Below are positions 6,043 through 55,877 of a DNA stretch of 64,000 bases, in pieces. Positions within the stretch are counted from its first letter, which is position 1, and the number at the start of each line of letters is the position of its first letter. Source of the stretch: Pseudomonadales bacterium (GTDB lineage: Bacteria > Patescibacteriota > Microgenomatia > UBA1400 > PJMF01); contig JACKFY010000004.1 in the NCBI GenBank assembly GCA_020632235.1, positions 4,811-68,810 on the forward strand, given 5' to 3'. Made by a program: the position numbers and the translations under genes. Below the pieces are notes generated by a model. It saw only the letters and a program-made list of their open reading frames with translations. It had not been told where the DNA came from and made no database searches.

Positions 6043-7193
6043 TAGATAACAACCGGCCTGTGGGGAAGGTTGTTTTTATTGATAATGTTGTCTAGCACTT
6101 CCCAGCGTTTCTTTTTGATACTATGGGGAATATCGTCTGAATAGATACGCCAGCTAGCAGTACCAGGACGAGGTGAGTACTGAGCAATAAAACCCACCTT
6201 CCAGTCCATCTGCCGGGCAAGAGAGACGGTCTCTGCAAACTCCGCGTCTGTTTCGCCCGGAAACCCCACCACAATATCGGTACCTATGACTATGTCAGGG
6301 TCAGCCGAGCGCAGCTTTTCTACTACCTCGATGTATCGCTCTCTGGTATAGCCTCTGTTCATACGATACAGAACGCTATTACTACCAGACTGGACGGGCA
6401 AGTGCACAAATCTATCTATTTTTTTATTTTGGCCAATCTCGGCTATCAACTCATCATGAAAATCCCAAGGGTTACTGGTCATAAACCGAATGGTGGTGAT
6501 TTGATCAAATTTTGAGATAGCCTGGAGAAGACGAACAAAGGGAGGAGTTTCAGTAGAAGAGAGGTACTGCGAGCTATTTTCTGGCAGATCAGAGCGTGTG
6601 AAGTTTTTGTTCTCCATCATCAACTTGCGAAATCCAATACCCACTTTTTCCAGCCCCCATGAGTTGACATTCATGCCTAGTAGTGTCACTTCTTTGTACC
6701 CTTTGTGTACCAATTTTGCTACCTCTTGCAAAATATCTTCAAGCGAGCGAGATTGTTCACGCCCCCGAGAGTAGGGGACAATACAGTAGGTGCAAAACGA
6801 GTTACAACCCGTCGAGATCGGTACCCAAGCGTGCGTGGTGTCCTTGCGCACCGCTGCCTGATTAAAACCCACTTCGTTGATAGGTAAAATTTCATCAATA
6901 ATAGGCAACATGGCATAAAGCCGCTCATTTCCGTGGTGCGTCATGCAGCCAGTGAGAATAATTTTTGGCCGACGCTTTCCGGAACTGTTGAAGTACGCGC
7001 CCACATTATGCAAAAACCCACGCGCTCGATGCTCAGCGCGCTGACGAATGGCACATGTATTGACAATCAGCTCGTCACACTCCCTCCAAGTGGTAGCCTC
7101 TATGTAGCCTCGCGCCTCATAGTCACCAGCAATGCGCTCAGAATCGCTTTTGTTGGATTGGCACCCAAACGTGTGAATGTAGTAACTTGACAT
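6042..7193 (-). CDS. miaB: tRNA-i6A37 methylthiotransferase MiaB (radical SAM MTTase)
   Basis: YIHTFGCQSNKSDSE N-terminal MTTase cysteine motif and the radical-SAM CNSFCTYCIVP motif. It is adjacent to miaA. Confidence 0.85.
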   Translation of the reverse strand: MSSYYIHTFGCQSNKSDSERIAGDYEARGYIEATTWRECDELIVNTCAIRQRAEHRARGFLHNVGAYFNSSGKRRPKIILTGCMTHHGNERLYAMLPIIDEILPINEVGFNQAAVRKDTTHAWVPISTGCNSFCTYCIVPYSRGREQSRSLEDILQEVAKLVHKGYKEVTLLGMNVNSWGLEKVGIGFRKLMMENKNFTRSDLPENSSQYLSSTETPPFVRLLQAISKFDQITTIRFMTSNPWDFHDELIAEIGQNKKIDRFVHLPVQSGSNSVLYRMNRGYTRERYIEVVEKLRSADPDIVIGTDIVVGFPGETDAEFAETVSLARQMDWKVGFIAQYSPRPGTASWRIYSDDIPHSIKKKRWEVLDNIINKNNLPHRPVVI

Positions 7194-7254
7194 ACTAAGG
7201 CCATCATTGTATCACCTGCAAGGTCCAACACAGCCAGAAAGACTACGTAAGTAT

Positions 7255-9432
7255 TTAGTAGATCCAATCCACAATCTGCAAACGACAGTTTTTATCAGCT
7301 GAAAGCGCTACTCCTCTCCAGGCAGGAAGCGACTGTTGAAAGTAACTTTCATCAAATGATCCACCATTAGTTTCAGCTATTTCTAGAAATGATTCGCCCA
7401 GACTTGTAGTGTCAGATAATGTGTACTGGTTAAAGTCAGAGTCGTATCGCACGTAGGCACGCACCAACTGCACTTCTTGTTGTTTCTGCTCGCAAAGCAA
7501 CCGATCGTAGGCAGCAACACTCAGCTCATCTACTTGCAACACTGACACTCCAGGAGAAGGACTTGGCTTTGTCCCCGACTGATCAAAGTCGTGCTCATCA
7601 TATGCGTTGTAGTCAAGACTCGTGTCTAAAAACGGATACTGTAGATCATCGGTGAGTGTGTACACTTGTTCATACAAAGCAACATCATATTTCATTTGAT
7701 AGCTGACAATTCTACCGGAAAGTGCGGGAAGTGTTTCAAGGTACAGCGCTTGGTTATTCATGATGTGCTGATAGGCTTGCCCACTACTATAGTTGAAGTA
7801 TCTCCAGGTTCGTACAGAAAGCACCTCTGGCCACAATGTGTGAGTATCATCATTTTCAAATGCTTCCTTGCGGAGCTCTTGATTCTCCCACAAAAACTGC
7901 TCTGGGGCGTGTTGAAGCATATTTTTTTCAACATTTTGCTGGATACTAAGTAATGCAAGTTTAATACCAGCGAGCTGTGATTTTTCTTTGTCAGAGAGTG
8001 TTTCTTTTGCCAAAAGTGTTTCGAGCTCACTTTCCATTGCATGGATGTTGGGCTCCCATCCACTCACCGCATCTTCAGACAGTTGGCTGAGATAAAAGTA
8101 GTCAGTGTATTCGTGATGACCCGGTACCCCCGCTACCACTCGCGCGTCAATATTGATTACATTCAATAGTAATACAACCAAACAGCTGATCACGACAATC
8201 CAGGTAAATAAGGCCGATTCACGCACTTTGCTCCAAACAAAGGATGCCAACAAGCCAAGAAGCACAAGTGCTAGCCACAGCGCAAACAGACCGCCAATAA
8301 TACGCACTCTCGTTAAGCCATATGCATCAACATATAGTATGTCTCGCTTCAGTGCTGAGAGCAACACAAAAAAGAGCTCCACCAAGAGCGCGCTTGAAAA
8401 CACACGGGTTAAAAGACTAACGGAGGTTTGAGAAGTCCGAGAAACAACTAGGCTAGTATACAGCAACACACTACCAACGCCTGTAGCAACAAGCAACTCT
8501 ACAAAACCTTTTCGTACATACTCACTGTAGGTTACACCAAGTGACGTAAATACATCTTGGTTTGCAAATAGGTACTCTGCTTGCACTGCTAAAAATGCTC
8601 CAAACAACACCACAAGGGCTGCGAGCGGTAAGACAATATCACTGGCAGAAAAAAGAGAAAATTGAATAGGTTTTTTCTGTACACGAACGTACTGAAAGGA
8701 AATCACACTTGCACTAACCAATAGCACTAGTGCGCTCGTAATACCGCGCTCTACAATGCTTTCAAAGATTTCTTCTACCTTTTTCGCAAAAATAGGGTCA
8801 GCGTTCATCAATAAAAGTGCAAAAAACACTACTACACACAACGTTAATCCGAGAGACACAATAAGTTGACGAATGTTTTTGCCATTTTTAGTGTTGTACG
8901 ACTGGGGCTGGAGCACCTTAAACACTTGGGCTACCCAACCCACTCCCGTCTGAACTGCCCACCGCACAAACCAAGCAATTTGAGGATACATAGTATGAGT
9001 GGCATACAGCATCAAAAGAGACAAAGAGAGTAACATAGTTGTAAGTGTATTCACTCCTTGCACAAATCCATTTGCTCGGTACACAGAGAAAAAACCAAAT
9101 ACTACACTCAAGAAAGAGAGGATAAGTACGCTACGACCAAGCAATTGTTTGGTGTACAGCAGCCAAAGAATCCCTAACTGCAACACAAAGTTAAATAAAG
9201 CAAATCCTAGTGGGGGAAACTGGCTTGACGTACCAAACAATAAAATATTCCACGCTAATATTGCAGAAAGAAGTAGCCATACAGAGCGTGGAGGAAACAA
9301 AACTGTTGTTGTAGGTTCTACCTGGGTGTTTGGAGGTGTTTCTTTTGGGCCACCAAACATCAGCTGGAGAATCTTTATCCCACCTGCAACCACGCAAGCG
9401 ATAATGACCAGCCCAAAAAAAAATGAAAACAT
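7255..9432 (-). CDS. Large hypothetical membrane protein (about 12 TM helices N-terminally, about 270-aa soluble C-terminal domain)
   Basis: A 725-aa ORF with a strongly hydrophobic N-terminal two-thirds. No known catalytic motif recognised. Confidence 0.55.
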   Translation of the reverse strand: MFSFFFGLVIIACVVAGGIKILQLMFGGPKETPPNTQVEPTTTVLFPPRSVWLLLSAILAWNILLFGTSSQFPPLGFALFNFVLQLGILWLLYTKQLLGRSVLILSFLSVVFGFFSVYRANGFVQGVNTLTTMLLSLSLLMLYATHTMYPQIAWFVRWAVQTGVGWVAQVFKVLQPQSYNTKNGKNIRQLIVSLGLTLCVVVFFALLLMNADPIFAKKVEEIFESIVERGITSALVLLVSASVISFQYVRVQKKPIQFSLFSASDIVLPLAALVVLFGAFLAVQAEYLFANQDVFTSLGVTYSEYVRKGFVELLVATGVGSVLLYTSLVVSRTSQTSVSLLTRVFSSALLVELFFVLLSALKRDILYVDAYGLTRVRIIGGLFALWLALVLLGLLASFVWSKVRESALFTWIVVISCLVVLLLNVINIDARVVAGVPGHHEYTDYFYLSQLSEDAVSGWEPNIHAMESELETLLAKETLSDKEKSQLAGIKLALLSIQQNVEKNMLQHAPEQFLWENQELRKEAFENDDTHTLWPEVLSVRTWRYFNYSSGQAYQHIMNNQALYLETLPALSGRIVSYQMKYDVALYEQVYTLTDDLQYPFLDTSLDYNAYDEHDFDQSGTKPSPSPGVSVLQVDELSVAAYDRLLCEQKQQEVQLVRAYVRYDSDFNQYTLSDTTSLGESFLEIAETNGGSFDESYFQQSLPAWRGVALSADKNCRLQIVDWIY

Positions 9433-14635: not shown

Positions 14636-15361
14636 TTGTGTTTTGACTCTGGATTGGCTATACTACCCCACTTTACAATAATGAAACCAGTGAACACCAA
14701 ATCACCAACAAAAAGCAGTGGACAGACCGGGCAGAACAGCAACCCGTTTGCCAGAGCGCTCGCCGAGACAGAGCAAGGTGCGTATCAAAGCGCCCAAAAG
14801 CCTGGCGGCATGGATACCTCATTTCTGCGTGACGCGCTCGCCCAAAGCGGCGGCAACTTCCCAACCGACAGCATACCTGGCAATGACCAAGATATGTTAC
14901 AACGTCAACAAGAAGAGCTAATGCGTCAACAAGAGCTCAAAGCGCGCAAGAAAAAACTCCACGACCAGATAAACCCAGTCAATCAAGAAAGTGTCTTTAA
15001 CGCCAAAGAAAAACGCGTCAAAGAAGAGCTAGAAAAAACCAGACAAGAGCTGGCCATGCTGGCCAAAGACATCGAGAAGTTTCGCAAAGACATTGGTGTT
15101 GCCACGTTTCAAGAGGTCACAGAACCAGGTACTGACGGCACCTACTACGTCTCGTTTTTCCAAAAGTTGCGCTCCTTTATCATGCTGCTCAGGCAAAAAA
15201 TAAAAAGTGCGAGCACTTGGGCAAACCAGTCAAATGGCAAAAAGAAAAAGAAAAAGCGCGGCAGCGCATTTATCATGGAGGGCAAAAGCAGCAATGAGCA
15301 AGGTAAGGCCATTTTTGACATGATGCACCACGAGGTGAGCAATGCCAGGAGTGGTGGGTAG
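14636..15361 (+). CDS. Hypothetical Lys/Glu-rich coiled-coil protein
   Basis: ORF only. The likely start is MKPVNTK at about 14678. No known domain recognised. Confidence 0.35.
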   Translation: MCFDSGLAILPHFTIMKPVNTKSPTKSSGQTGQNSNPFARALAETEQGAYQSAQKPGGMDTSFLRDALAQSGGNFPTDSIPGNDQDMLQRQQEELMRQQELKARKKKLHDQINPVNQESVFNAKEKRVKEELEKTRQELAMLAKDIEKFRKDIGVATFQEVTEPGTDGTYYVSFFQKLRSFIMLLRQKIKSASTWANQSNGKKKKKKRGSAFIMEGKSSNEQGKAIFDMMHHEVSNARSGG

Positions 15362-15559
15362 TTGACTGTCATGCTAGCTGGTTGTCACTCTGGAGCGAAG
15401 CGATAGAGTCTACAGTCACAAGCCAAGCGGTTGTCAATCTGAACTTGTTTCAGATTCAAAAAAAAACCCTACATCGTAATTCCAAATGACAATGGCGAAC
15501 CAGCTGAACCGCTCAATGTTGACTTTGAAACAGAAGGTGCTGATGCCACGAGCAGTGCT

Positions 15560-32368: not shown

Positions 32369-32436
32369 TACTTCCTTCCCCTTGTGAGGGAGCCCCGATG
32401 TGAAATCGGGACGGGAACTCAAGTGAAACATGAGAG

Positions 32437-32514
32437 GGGTTTCTGTCATTTCGACTGGAACAAAGTGGAATGGAGAAATCCCGCTCAGATCTCTCCACTT
32501 ACGGTCGAGATGAC
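32437..32514. repeat. Intergenic long-hairpin repeat element R, copy 1
   Basis: GTCATTTCGAC pairs with GTCGAGATGAC (11 bp) around a roughly 50-nt loop. It is homologous to 44194-44268. Confidence 0.5.
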
Positions 32515-32543
32515 ATACTAGGTTTCAGTTGACGTCACACAAC

Positions 32544-43946: not shown

Positions 43947-44012
43947 CCCCCTCACCCAGACTTCTCCACTTGCGGTCGAAGTGACAGACTAGTGTTTAGT
44001 CAAAACAAAAAG

Positions 44013-44131
44013 GTTTAGCATCTCGTCTTTGCAAGAGGAGCACCCTTCACCTTTCAGGTGAAAGGGCGAGGTGCTTAGCTCTTCCCTTCATAAGGGAACC
44101 CCCGATGAAACATCGGGGGACAGGGACATCA
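44013..44131 (+). repeat. Multi-hairpin structured element E, copy 2
   Basis: Same order of hairpins and GTTTAGC spacers as 38234-38347, with covarying stems (CGTCTTTGCAAGAGG, CCTTCACC-TTTC-AGGTGAAAGG, CCCTT-CAT-AAGGG, CCCGATGAAACATCGGG) and a conserved ACAGGGACATC 3' end. Confidence 0.5.
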
Positions 44132-44193
44132 AGCGTGAGCGTGATAGATAGGTTTAAACATTCCCCTTGTAAGGGGAAAACTCGAGCGAAAAG

Positions 44194-44268
44194 GGTTTCT
44201 GTCATTTAGATCCACCAGCTGACGGAGAGAAATCACACCCAGATTTCTCGACTACGCTCGAAATGACG
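44194..44268. repeat. Intergenic long-hairpin repeat element R, copy 2
   Basis: GGGTTTCTGTCATTTAGATC ... CAGATTTCTCGACTACGCTCGAAATGAC is homologous to 32437-32514. Confidence 0.5.
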
Positions 44269-44317
44269 GGGAGGAATGGTCGGTATGACAGGTGGGATTA
44301 GTGGAGAGCATTGACTT

Positions 44318-44357
44318 GCAGTCGTCACTCTGGAGTAAAACGATAGAGTCTGACTGC
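44318..44357. repeat. Conserved stem-loop motif, copy B (GCAGTC-ACTCT-GGAGTAAAACGAT-AGAGT-GACTGC)
   Basis: It shares the 27-nt core CACTCTGGANNNAANCGATAGAGTCT with 15381-15417 and 55343-55382. Confidence 0.55.
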
Positions 44358-44358
44358 C

Positions 44359-44889
44359 CTAATACTGCGCAAACTCTCGGCGTAGCGTTACTTCACGCTC
44401 CTGCGTACCAATGCGCCAGGTGGTTGTCACCAACACCGTGATAGTGCTGCCAGTATTTTCTTCAACTTCTAGCTCTCGGGTAAACTCTGCTCGCAGGTCA
44501 TCATCCATCAAAAATGAACAGGTGTATGCCTGTTGACCAAATGGTGACGTCCAATTAATAAATGCATCTTCTTGTAAAGAGCCATCATCTGTCAAACAAA
44601 TAGTTTGACTTTCTGGTAGTTCATCTGAAAATGCCTGCCAACCATACACGGCACGCGATCGCTGTAGATACTCCATCACGTGTTGTGACTTGGCAGTTGC
44701 TACCTCGCGCATGCGCGCCTCGGCCGAGTTCCGCACACTTTGGGTGAGCACCATAGCAATACCTGTCAACATAATGCCAGAAATAGCCACCGCCACCAAT
44801 ACTTCTATCAGGCCGATGCCAGCTGAGTGGCGTTTTAGTCGAGCAACACGGTCTTTAAAGATCATGGAGATTCCCCTCAGAAGTAACAC
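44359..44889 (-). CDS. Pseudopilin / minor type IV pilin
   Basis: RHSAGIGLIEVLVAVAISGIML variant prepilin motif (G-IGLIE). Confidence 0.65.
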   Translation of the reverse strand: MLLLRGISMIFKDRVARLKRHSAGIGLIEVLVAVAISGIMLTGIAMVLTQSVRNSAEARMREVATAKSQHVMEYLQRSRAVYGWQAFSDELPESQTICLTDDGSLQEDAFINWTSPFGQQAYTCSFLMDDDLRAEFTRELEVEENTGSTITVLVTTTWRIGTQEREVTLRREFAQY

Positions 44890-55342: not shown

Positions 55343-55382
55343 GCAGTCTTCACTCTGGACCGAAACGATAGAGTCTGACTGC
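55343..55382. repeat. Conserved stem-loop motif, copy C, between gyrB and ppa
   Basis: GCAGTC-TTC-ACTCT-GGACCGAAACGAT-AGAGT-CT-GACTGC. The flanks are identical to copy B. Confidence 0.55.
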
Positions 55383-55394
55383 AAGAAAGGAACT

Positions 55395-55877
55395 ATGAGC
55401 AACACCGTTACCGTTTTAATCGAGATTCCAGAGGGCTCTCAGGTCAAGTACGAGCTAAATGAGGACACGCACCAAATGGAGGTAGACCGCATCATGCCGG
55501 TCGCGATGGGGTATCCTGTCAACTATGGCTTGATCGATGACACCAAAGGTGAAGATGGAGACGCACTCGACGCACTTGTTTTCTTGGGCGCCCCAGTAGT
55601 ACCAGGGGTGCGCATCAAGTGTAAAGTCATCGGCATGCTCGAAATGGAAGACGAGGCAGGCATCGATCACAAGCTGGTCTGCGTGCCCGCTACCACCAAG
55701 ATTGACCCTGCGTGCGGTGCTTGGGAGTCTTTAGACGATGTGCCAGAGTGGAAAAAAACCCAAATCAGACACTTTTTTGAACACTACAAAGACTTGGAAG
55801 AAGGTAAGTGGGTCAAACTCAATAACTGGCAGGACAGCGCCACTGCACTGGGAGTACTAGCAAAAGGAAGAGTATAA
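55395..55877 (+). CDS. ppa: Inorganic pyrophosphatase (family I)
   Basis: [23 protein letters not shown] matches the active-site region. Confidence 0.9.

Follow-up and report, generated by a model that had tools for sequence, protein, structure and literature searches.

SsnA of Neisseria meningitidis is a single-domain GIY-YIG protein of 94 amino acids (aa; cd10448) that binds NTS, a hairpin repeat (CGTCATTCCCGCGMAVGCGGGAATCYRG), only as single-stranded DNA (ssDNA) and on one strand only, and cuts a few nucleotides upstream of it (Chenal et al. 2025, PMC11893778). In that study, the 3 nt before the palindrome were important for cutting and the C behind it for binding, the loop was dispensable, and SsnA did not bind RNA. 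NTS-like repeats, termed SRM, flank most ssn homologues in an SRM-ssn-SRM arrangement that resembles an insertion sequence, and in Neisseria the Ssn system causes NTS-bearing DNA to be transformed less (PMC11893778). Here we analyzed a hairpin that occurs three times (copies A, B, and C) in a 64,000-nt stretch of contig JACKFY010000004.1, hereafter called the window. The evidence presented below makes it likely that each of the three copies represents a solo unit of a palindromic, hairpin-forming DNA repeat, which belongs to the CGTC/TGTC-tagged REP superfamily (NTS/SRM) and is linked to an Ssn-family nuclease. Rather than RNA regulators of their neighboring genes, the copies are most likely DNA hairpins that are selfish or serve as nuclease targets.

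The NTS and SRM repeats are those earlier classed as CGTC-tagged REPs (PMC3733652, PMC11893778). According to the parts of the 2013 survey drawn on here, these REPs fall into the groups CGTC-1 to CGTC-4, with dRS3 of Neisseria being CGTC-1, the tag often reads TGTC, the stem opens with A-T, and no dedicated transposase was found (Di Nocera et al. 2013, PMC3733652). The same parts refer to 5 phyla, with bacteria of the candidate phyla radiation (CPR) not covered. REP/BIME elements with RAYT and the subterminal hairpins of IS200/IS605 offer a further parallel, since they are small extragenic palindromes recognized as ssDNA by a small enzyme whose gene they flank, and most of their copies are non-autonomous. 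REP/RAYT elements carry a GTAG tag and depend on an HUH/Y1 transposase, whereas Ssn elements have a GIY-YIG enzyme and transposition is attributed to them only by analogy. Membership of the window hairpins in the GTAG-tagged REP/RAYT group was rejected, because GTAG is found at neither end of the unit and the associated gene is of the GIY-YIG type.

Compared to the NTS frame CGTC-ATTCCCGC-GMAV-GCGGGAAT-C-YRG, the window hairpins agree in three features, namely the YGTC tag, a palindrome that opens with A and closes with T, and a C on its 3' side with a Y after it. The (C/T)GTC tag is unpaired, reading TGTC in copy A, CGTC in copy B, and a degenerate CTTC in copy C. As in the NTS/SRM repeats (SRM size 20–50 nt), the unit is an inverted repeat able to form a hairpin, and it is multi-copy, intergenic, often clustered, and found on both sides of a GIY-YIG gene of ~94 aa. 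The features shared with CGTC REPs, as given in the parts of the survey drawn on here (PMC3733652), are a CGTC tag at the end of the unit (TGTC and CCTC are variants of it, CGTC being 'changed to TGTC ... in many repeats'), the A-T stem opening, a short unpaired tail, facing dimers, and a preference for sites downstream of open reading frames (ORFs). The stems differ, with 8 bp and a 4-nt loop in NTS and, in the same parts of the survey, 8–9 bp, a 4–5-nt loop, and a CCA-like tail in CGTC REPs, whereas the present class has 5 Watson-Crick bp followed by G-T, tandem G.A pairs, a mini-hairpin of 3–33 nt, and a tail of C-Y-(A/C). The hosts differ as well, since SRM repeats occur mainly in Pseudomonadati and the present class occurs in Clostridia, Fibrobacter, and CPR bacteria.

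The initial annotation had described a core shared by the three copies, and we found it exactly there. The core CACTCTGGA-N3-AA-N-CGATAGAGTCT occurred three times in the window and on the + strand only (15386, 44326, and 55351; chance expectation 0). In a window scan, its degenerate form CACTCTGGASYRAARCGATAGAGTCT had exactly three perfect matches, each of them on the + strand (15386–15411, 44326–44351, and 55351–55376), with no fourth site in the window at up to 3 mismatches and 0 matches in 100 shuffles. The 'loop' pattern GGANNNAANCGAT alone retrieved only the same three sites in the window, against 0.28 expected. The inner stem ACTCT/AGAGT was present in all copies and the outer stem GCAGTC/GACTGC in copy B (arms 44318–44323 and 44352–44357) and copy C (55343–55348 and 55377–55382), both as first described, while the outer pairing of copy A is different and weaker. 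When the copies were aligned with their flanks, the likeness stopped a few bases beyond the unit, the exception being the outer stem common to copies B and C. In all three copies the reading is AGAGT-C, that is, a C directly follows the palindrome.

Copy A matches the cross-phylum consensus unit GTCACTCTGGAGCGAAGCGATAGAGTC at every position and looks recent or intact. The subtype with the outer stem had 0 further copies in the metagenome scan, and copies B and C appear from their sequences to be a host-specific, diverged local subfamily. The positions of the copies next to gene ends also stood up to inspection. Copy A follows a DUF5660 gene (14636–15361) at a distance of 22 nt from its stop, copy B ends just short of the stop codon of an opposite-strand N-methyl pilin-like gene (44359–44889), and the interval from the gyrB stop (55331) to the ribosome-binding site of ppa, whose ATG is at 55395, contains copy C.

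In the layout T-GTC-ACTCT-G-GA-GC-GAA-GC-GA-T-AGAGT-C-T, the 13 nt enclosed by the Watson-Crick arms can pair with themselves through G-T, tandem G.A/A.G, G-C, and C-G around a GAA triloop; copy B retains this scheme with G-C, T-A, and an AAA loop, and copy C does not. What had been called an invariant 13-nt loop is thus invariant among the three window copies, but it is an extension of the helix, and its apex is variable in the wider family (96 variants). Copy A and the family consensus contain exactly GCGAAGC, the 'mini-hairpin DNA' d(GCGAAGC)/GCGNAGC of Hirao and co-workers, which the parts of a review drawn on here describe as extraordinarily stable (PMC13037366), and most apical inserts of the family are likewise GNA triloops closed by C-G. 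Mini-hairpin DNA is a physico-chemical motif and not a genetic element, and its stability in the present context is predicted by likeness only. Minimum free energy z-scores of the core hairpin were not used as evidence; since energy models ignore the non-canonical pairs, the structure rests on comparative data.

These comparative data came from a family of related units. A genome collection with one genome per species was scanned with the relaxed pattern ACTCTGGANNNAANCGATAGAGT, which matched 29 genomic stretches (L001–L029). The hosts were Christensenellaceae, Clostridiales, and Clostridia metagenome-assembled genomes (MAGs), three Fibrobacter(ales) genomes, two Pseudomonadota MAGs, one Parcubacteria MAG, and one Komeilibacteria MAG. 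The exact 27-mer of copy A was found in 26 of the 33 matches in these loci, so that the prevailing reading, TGTCACTCTGGAGCGAAGCGATAGAGTC, is that of copy A, and it adjoins unrelated genes in five or more phyla. In many loci, a second, related unit lies inverted 3–25 nt downstream, and the pair forms a palindrome of ~70 nt. The general form first derived from the loci, GTCA-YTCT-GGAG-[insert]-CGAT-AGAR-TC, was found with a gap of 3–33 nt on at least 120 metagenome contigs, and the family form can be written as YT-GTC-A(YYCT)-GGAG-[variable mini-hairpin]-CGAT-(AGRR)T-C-Y. Literature searches with the raw sequence strings found nothing relevant.

Covariation across the family confirmed the claim that the hairpin is real, structured, and conserved. 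A search left open as Y/R recovered T-A in 130 units and C-G in 11, with 0 mismatched combinations (141/141 covary). When the 4-nt stem was left open, 221 of 228 units were perfectly paired in six variants, namely TTCT/AGAA (141), CTCT/AGAG (42), TCCT/AGGA (27), TGCT/AGCA (7), CCCT/AGGG (3), and TCTT/AAGA (1). The apical insert was 3–33 nt long and, in 130 units, took 96 different forms, such as CGAAG, CCGAAGG, GCCGAAGGC, and GGGCAAAGCCC. A closure of at least 2 bp was present in 47 of 106 distinct inserts, compared to 6.8 in shuffles, and the apical loops were mostly GAA, AAA, GCA, GGA, or GTA. Outside the unit, only a T at −1 before the fixed GTC (151/178; C in 17/178), a Y at −2, and a Y at +1 (169/178) were conserved. 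The bias toward intergenic positions was also real, with 28% of the units in long open frames, compared to 74% of random positions.

The scan with the 3–33-nt gap also retrieved three viral contigs, in which the units occupy phage intergenic regions, including seven on one 5.3-kb contig. On the IMG/VR contigs L030–L032, GGAG...CGAT units stand in tandem between terminase-like and portal-like phage genes, and ORF callers translate the hairpin units as N-terminal 'MRFYRELRSLQND...' extensions.

The link to a nuclease comes from a gene that the units flank. In loci L004 (5535–5904) and L026 (4451–4828), two inverted units bracket an ORF of 93–95 aa that matches the Pfam GIY-YIG domain at 4e-18. 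In about 1 Mb of collected loci, a GIY-YIG gene of 90–100 aa was found within 150 nt of 20 of 190 units, often with units on both sides. The L004-type protein has more than 6000 relatives; the best 120 are at least 61% identical, most of them 61–75%, and those carrying names among the best 120 include Clostridia, Deltaproteobacteria, Desulfobacterales, and Thermosynechococcus. Hairpins of the GTC-A...T-C frame, with stems and loops that differ, likewise stand on both sides of three further homologues (65–70% identical), so that all five different GIY-YIG homologues examined are hairpin-bracketed. One such flanking hairpin is CTGTCATCCT-GAGCGTAAGCGA-AGGATC, with tandem G.A pairs and a GTAA loop, and another, beside a Desulfobacterales GIY-YIG gene (L034–L037), is TTGTCACCCTGAACTTGTTTCAGGGTC. 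The complete form of the element would therefore appear, from these arrangements, to be two hairpins bracketing a 90–100-aa Ssn-family GIY-YIG gene, with most copies gene-less and intergenic. The near-identical contigs L042–L049 carry 2 to 5 tandem half-units of ~36 nt (...GACAGCGAGGTGTAGGATGACAGTTACGCTCAGGAT...) after the right hairpin, downstream of the GIY-YIG gene at about 1790–2100 of the locus, and this varying number shows that units are rapidly gained or lost. The ssn-like gene of these contigs stands in a string of SNF2 helicase, DUF4391, and N6/N4 methylase genes that looks like a defence or restriction locus.

The L004-type protein was identified as an Ssn homologue by comparison with Neisseria. 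No model in NCBIfam is specific for it, and the Protein Data Bank has only distant UPF0213 relatives. Its sequence gave one match in each of two N. gonorrhoeae chromosomes included in a plasmid collection (E 9e-17). The match in NZ_CP119140.1 is a 94-aa ORF with nine canonical NTS within 3.2 kb, which fits SsnA as described in PMC11893778, and the two proteins are 42% identical (pairwise E 2e-26). Because these values lie below the E < 1e-10 used for Ssn homologues in PMC11893778, we regard the L004-type protein as one of them. As to the records themselves, both chromosomes are complete (2.17 Mb), filed as plasmids, and almost without annotation; the ssnA-like 94-aa ORF and its nine flanking NTS (L175, NZ_CP119140.1 1880787–1884041) are unannotated.

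The distance between unit and gene bears on another explanation, that the unit is a portable sigma-70-like promoter (TTGTCA, 16 nt, TAGAGT; TAGAAT in the common variant) that drives ssn or, when solo, a downstream gene such as ppa. The left unit ends 17–30 nt before the ssn start codon in L004 and L026, a promoter scan called copy A at 15382–15409 (9/12 matches, 16-nt spacer), and in copy C the −10-like TAGAGT lies about 20 nt before the ppa ATG. However, matches of only 9/12 arise by chance 0.3 times per 260 nt, and the scan did not call copies B and C. The right-hand unit would fire antisense into ssn, and copy B would be directed into the antisense strand of the pilin gene. The apical insert of 3–33 nt changes the spacer, so the promoter geometry is broken in most family members. 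We thus hold it very unlikely that the units are promoters of this kind.

The same arrangement could be taken for a REP or MITE moved by a tyrosine transposase (Y1/RAYT, IS200/IS605-type), with the GIY-YIG gene merely a frequent insertion neighbor or target. Subterminal hairpins, solo units, and facing dimers do resemble REP/BIME and IS200/IS605, and a contig from a relative of the window (L053) has a Y1_Tnp gene near pilus genes. Yet the tag is YGTC and not GTAG, no Y1 transposase gene was seen adjoining units in the loci examined, and the GIY-YIG gene recurs beside the units at the frequency given above, with all five homologues hairpin-bracketed. For CGTC REPs, moreover, the parts of PMC3733652 drawn on here report no dedicated transposase, and these repeats were later linked to Ssn (PMC11893778). 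Movement by a Y1 transposase is therefore highly improbable.

Family membership, covariation, the link to the ssn-like gene, homology to SsnA, avoidance of coding regions, and absence from the site in relatives (see below) directly support a DNA repeat of the Ssn type, which its distribution marks as an apparently dispersed and horizontally spread element. Several observations weigh against it. The biochemistry is, to our knowledge, confined to four proteobacterial Ssn proteins. The published SRM pattern, HGTCWYN(0-2)YYVSBRHN(0-5)WNVSBRGN(0-2)RNCYNB, had 0 matches in the window, copies A–C included, and did not match the hairpins flanking the genes of L004, L026, L034, L038, L042, and L043, although in control runs it matched NTS and all nine NTS around the gonococcal gene. 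No GIY-YIG or ssn gene was found in the window by tblastn with two and then 120 Ssn homologues, and a cognate Ssn of this organism is putative. In several loci, the two units around the gene share one orientation instead of being inverted relative to each other. The 33-nt core of copy A, folded as DNA or RNA with nearest-neighbor energies, was no better than its shuffles (z about 0), and copy C, without the GTC tag and the apical pairing, may be inert. Since the window hairpins fail the SRM pattern and yet keep the frame, we interpret them as members of the superfamily that fall outside the published search definition. The best tblastn match in the window (7119–7343, E 0.008) was in no ORF and was taken as chance.

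On the Ssn-linked reading, we infer ssDNA binding and cleavage of the present hairpin class by analogy with the Neisseria work. When the DNA becomes single-stranded, for example in replication, DNA uptake, or repair, the + strand would fold into the 5-bp A...T stem, continued by G-T, tandem sheared G.A/A.G, G-C, and C-G and capped by a GNA triloop, leaving the YGTC tag unpaired 5' of the stem and a C on its 3' side. A cognate Ssn nuclease may then bind the oriented hairpin and nick the single strand a few nucleotides upstream; the candidate top-strand ssDNA site for the L004-type Ssn contains TTGTCACTCTGGAGCGAAGCGATAGAGTCTAC. Two outcomes are conceivable, namely spread of the element, as in REP/RAYT or IS200/IS605, and restriction of incoming ssDNA or modulation of its recombination, as in Neisseria. 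The genome of the window may likewise encode a cognate Ssn, and the hairpins may be of some benefit to the host.

A bolder proposal, which we consider possible but doubtful, is that the GGAG...CGAT hairpin is a distinct cross-phylum mobile class and that Ssn copies or homes such hairpins as the GIY-YIG counterpart of RAYT/TnpA. The 27-nt core would then be identical across Clostridia, Fibrobacter, Proteobacteria, and CPR bacteria because a conserved GIY-YIG enzyme (65–75% identical across phyla) recognizes a non-canonical ssDNA fold made of tandem G.A pairs and a GNA mini-hairpin. If so, Ssn would be a hairpin-guided mobility enzyme and not merely a host restriction factor. The proposal also allows for an outward-independent sigma-70-like promoter (TTGTCA-16-TAGAGT) in the minimal unit.

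The site between gyrB and ppa allowed the window to be compared with its relatives. The gene order of pilus genes, holB, gyrB, ppa, and gyrA is common to the window and the relatives. The ppa protein has an identical match labelled 'MAG: Pseudomonadales bacterium', and its close relatives that carry names are all Pacebacteria, Woesebacteria, or Patescibacteria. Judging from these relatives and the gene order, which point to CPR bacteria, the 'Pseudomonadales' label of the source record is probably wrong. The distance from the gyrB stop to the ppa start was 63 nt in the window, 14 nt in L053 and L054, and 37 nt in L050, and the hairpin was absent from this orthologous spacer in all three relatives, suggesting that copy C is an insertion. 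Absence from related genomes had been named beforehand as grounds for abandoning a regulatory element, and the hairpin is indeed missing from the gyrB-ppa spacer of the nearest relatives.

This absence also bears on the explanation that the hairpin acts at the RNA level, as a transcribed stem-loop that binds a protein or RNA and stabilizes mRNA 3' ends, is processed by RNase, or attenuates the flanking genes. Such functions have been proposed for many REPs. In line with such a role, each copy lies within about 25 nt of a gene end, copy C is inside the co-oriented gyrB-ppa-gyrA string, and, with the outer stems included, the RNA folds of copies B and C surpass those of shuffles (z = −3.1 and −2.1, respectively). 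Many REPs have also been argued to be transcribed and to act as RNA, according to the parts of PMC3733652 drawn on here. However, the hairpin is no conserved regulator of ppa, because it is missing from the 14–37-nt spacer of the relatives. Copy B is antisense to the adjoining pilin gene, only one of two opposite-oriented units flanking ssn can be sense, the same 27-mer stands beside unrelated genes in five or more phyla, and SsnA is without RNA binding (PMC11893778). An RNA-level role is therefore unlikely as the primary explanation; it could be a secondary effect on top of a role at the DNA level.

The remark in the initial annotation that the hairpin is not a simple terminator was correct, since there was no U-tract and 0 terminator-like sites (stem plus T-run) at the three copy locations, and an intrinsic (Rho-independent) terminator was rejected on these grounds. 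Rfam 15 at the gathering threshold yielded only tRNAs in the window and in eight loci. With the limit relaxed to E ≤ 10 for the surroundings of copies A and C and for a full dimer, only chance-level matches appeared, so the motif has no Rfam family, which also counts against the RNA-level explanation. Of the proposed protein- or RNA-binding loop, recognition by a protein is the most likely part, but the likely ligand acts on the DNA hairpin, given that SsnA does not bind RNA (PMC11893778).

The copies are thus structurally distinct additions to the recently described Ssn/SRM repeats, and they are real rather than a chance repeat. What looked like a regulatory stem-loop is explained as one unit of a repeat family, the partner enzyme of which was characterized only in 2025, and the range of the Ssn-type repeat system now takes in CPR bacteria, Clostridia, and Fibrobacter and reaches as far as phage contigs. 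The published SRM pattern misses a large class of hairpins built on tandem G.A pairs and a GNA mini-hairpin that varies. In annotation, such hairpins should not be taken as gene-specific RNA regulators. The L004-type Ssn and its strongly conserved site TTGTCACTCTGGAGCGAAGCGATAGAGTC form a candidate enzyme-site pair for Ssn biology and ssDNA tools.

Further hairpins of the same frame were found in the window (Table 1). Searching generically for GTCA, then 5 or more bp of stem, then TC found nine in the window versus 6.6 expected; since this search is unspecific, matches were accepted only if they were similar to one another or to known ssn-flanking hairpins. The second-class hairpin (GTCAATCTGAACTTGTTTCAGATTC) lies 22 nt past copy A, with nine consecutive A after it, and the flanking hairpins of the Desulfobacterales GIY-YIG gene are near-identical to it in form. 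The third-class facing pair has the GTC-A...T-C frame, tandem G.A beside the stem, and a GTAA loop. Other third-class hairpins share the intergenic region of copy B, which thus sits in a cluster of such units.

Table 1 Hairpins of the GTC-A...T-C frame in the window.
Feature	Position	Strand	Description
Copy A	15383–15411	+	T-GTC tag, basal stem ACTCT/AGAGT, GGA-GCGAAGC-GAT core, C-T tail
Copy B	44318–44357	+	Outer stem GCAGTC/GACTGC enclosing CGTC-ACTCT-GGAGTAAAACGAT-AGAGT-C
Copy C	55343–55382	+	Same 40-nt outer-stem element; degenerate tag CTTC, degenerate apex GGACCGAAACGAT
Second-class hairpin	15433–15457	+	GTC-AATCTGAA-CTTG-TTTCAGATT-C; DNA fold −5.8 kcal/mol, z = −2.0
Third-class facing pair, first unit	32445–32480	+	GTCATTTCGAC...GAGAAATC
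Third-class facing pair, second unit	32488–32514	−	GTCATCTCGACCGTAAGTGGAGAGATC
Third-class hairpin near copy B	43959–43985	−	GTCACTTCGACCGCAAGTGGAGAAGTC
Third-class hairpin near copy B	44202–44235	+	
Third-class hairpin near copy B	44242–44267	−	

The segments 32372–32520 and 44085–44270 are homologous and represent composite repeats of about 150–190 nt, which may be MITEs or ncRNAs. Both contain small G+C hairpins (CTTCCC..., CCCCGATG..ATCGGG) with a facing GTC-A...T-C pair at the end, both are intergenic and adjoin pilus genes (PilO; pilin-like genes), and neither had an Rfam match. In the relative L053, the Y1_Tnp (IS200/RAYT-type) gene at 1439–1870 is beside a pilin gene, and the window has none there. 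Further hairpin types of the same frame (GTCATTACGAGGAGCAAAACGACGAAGTAATC, GTCATTGCGGGGCGTTAGCCGTGGCAATC) were seen beside GGAG...CGAT dimers in L003 (1095–1180), L015, and L018, suggesting that several classes co-exist, clustered in a BIME-like manner, in one Clostridiales MAG.

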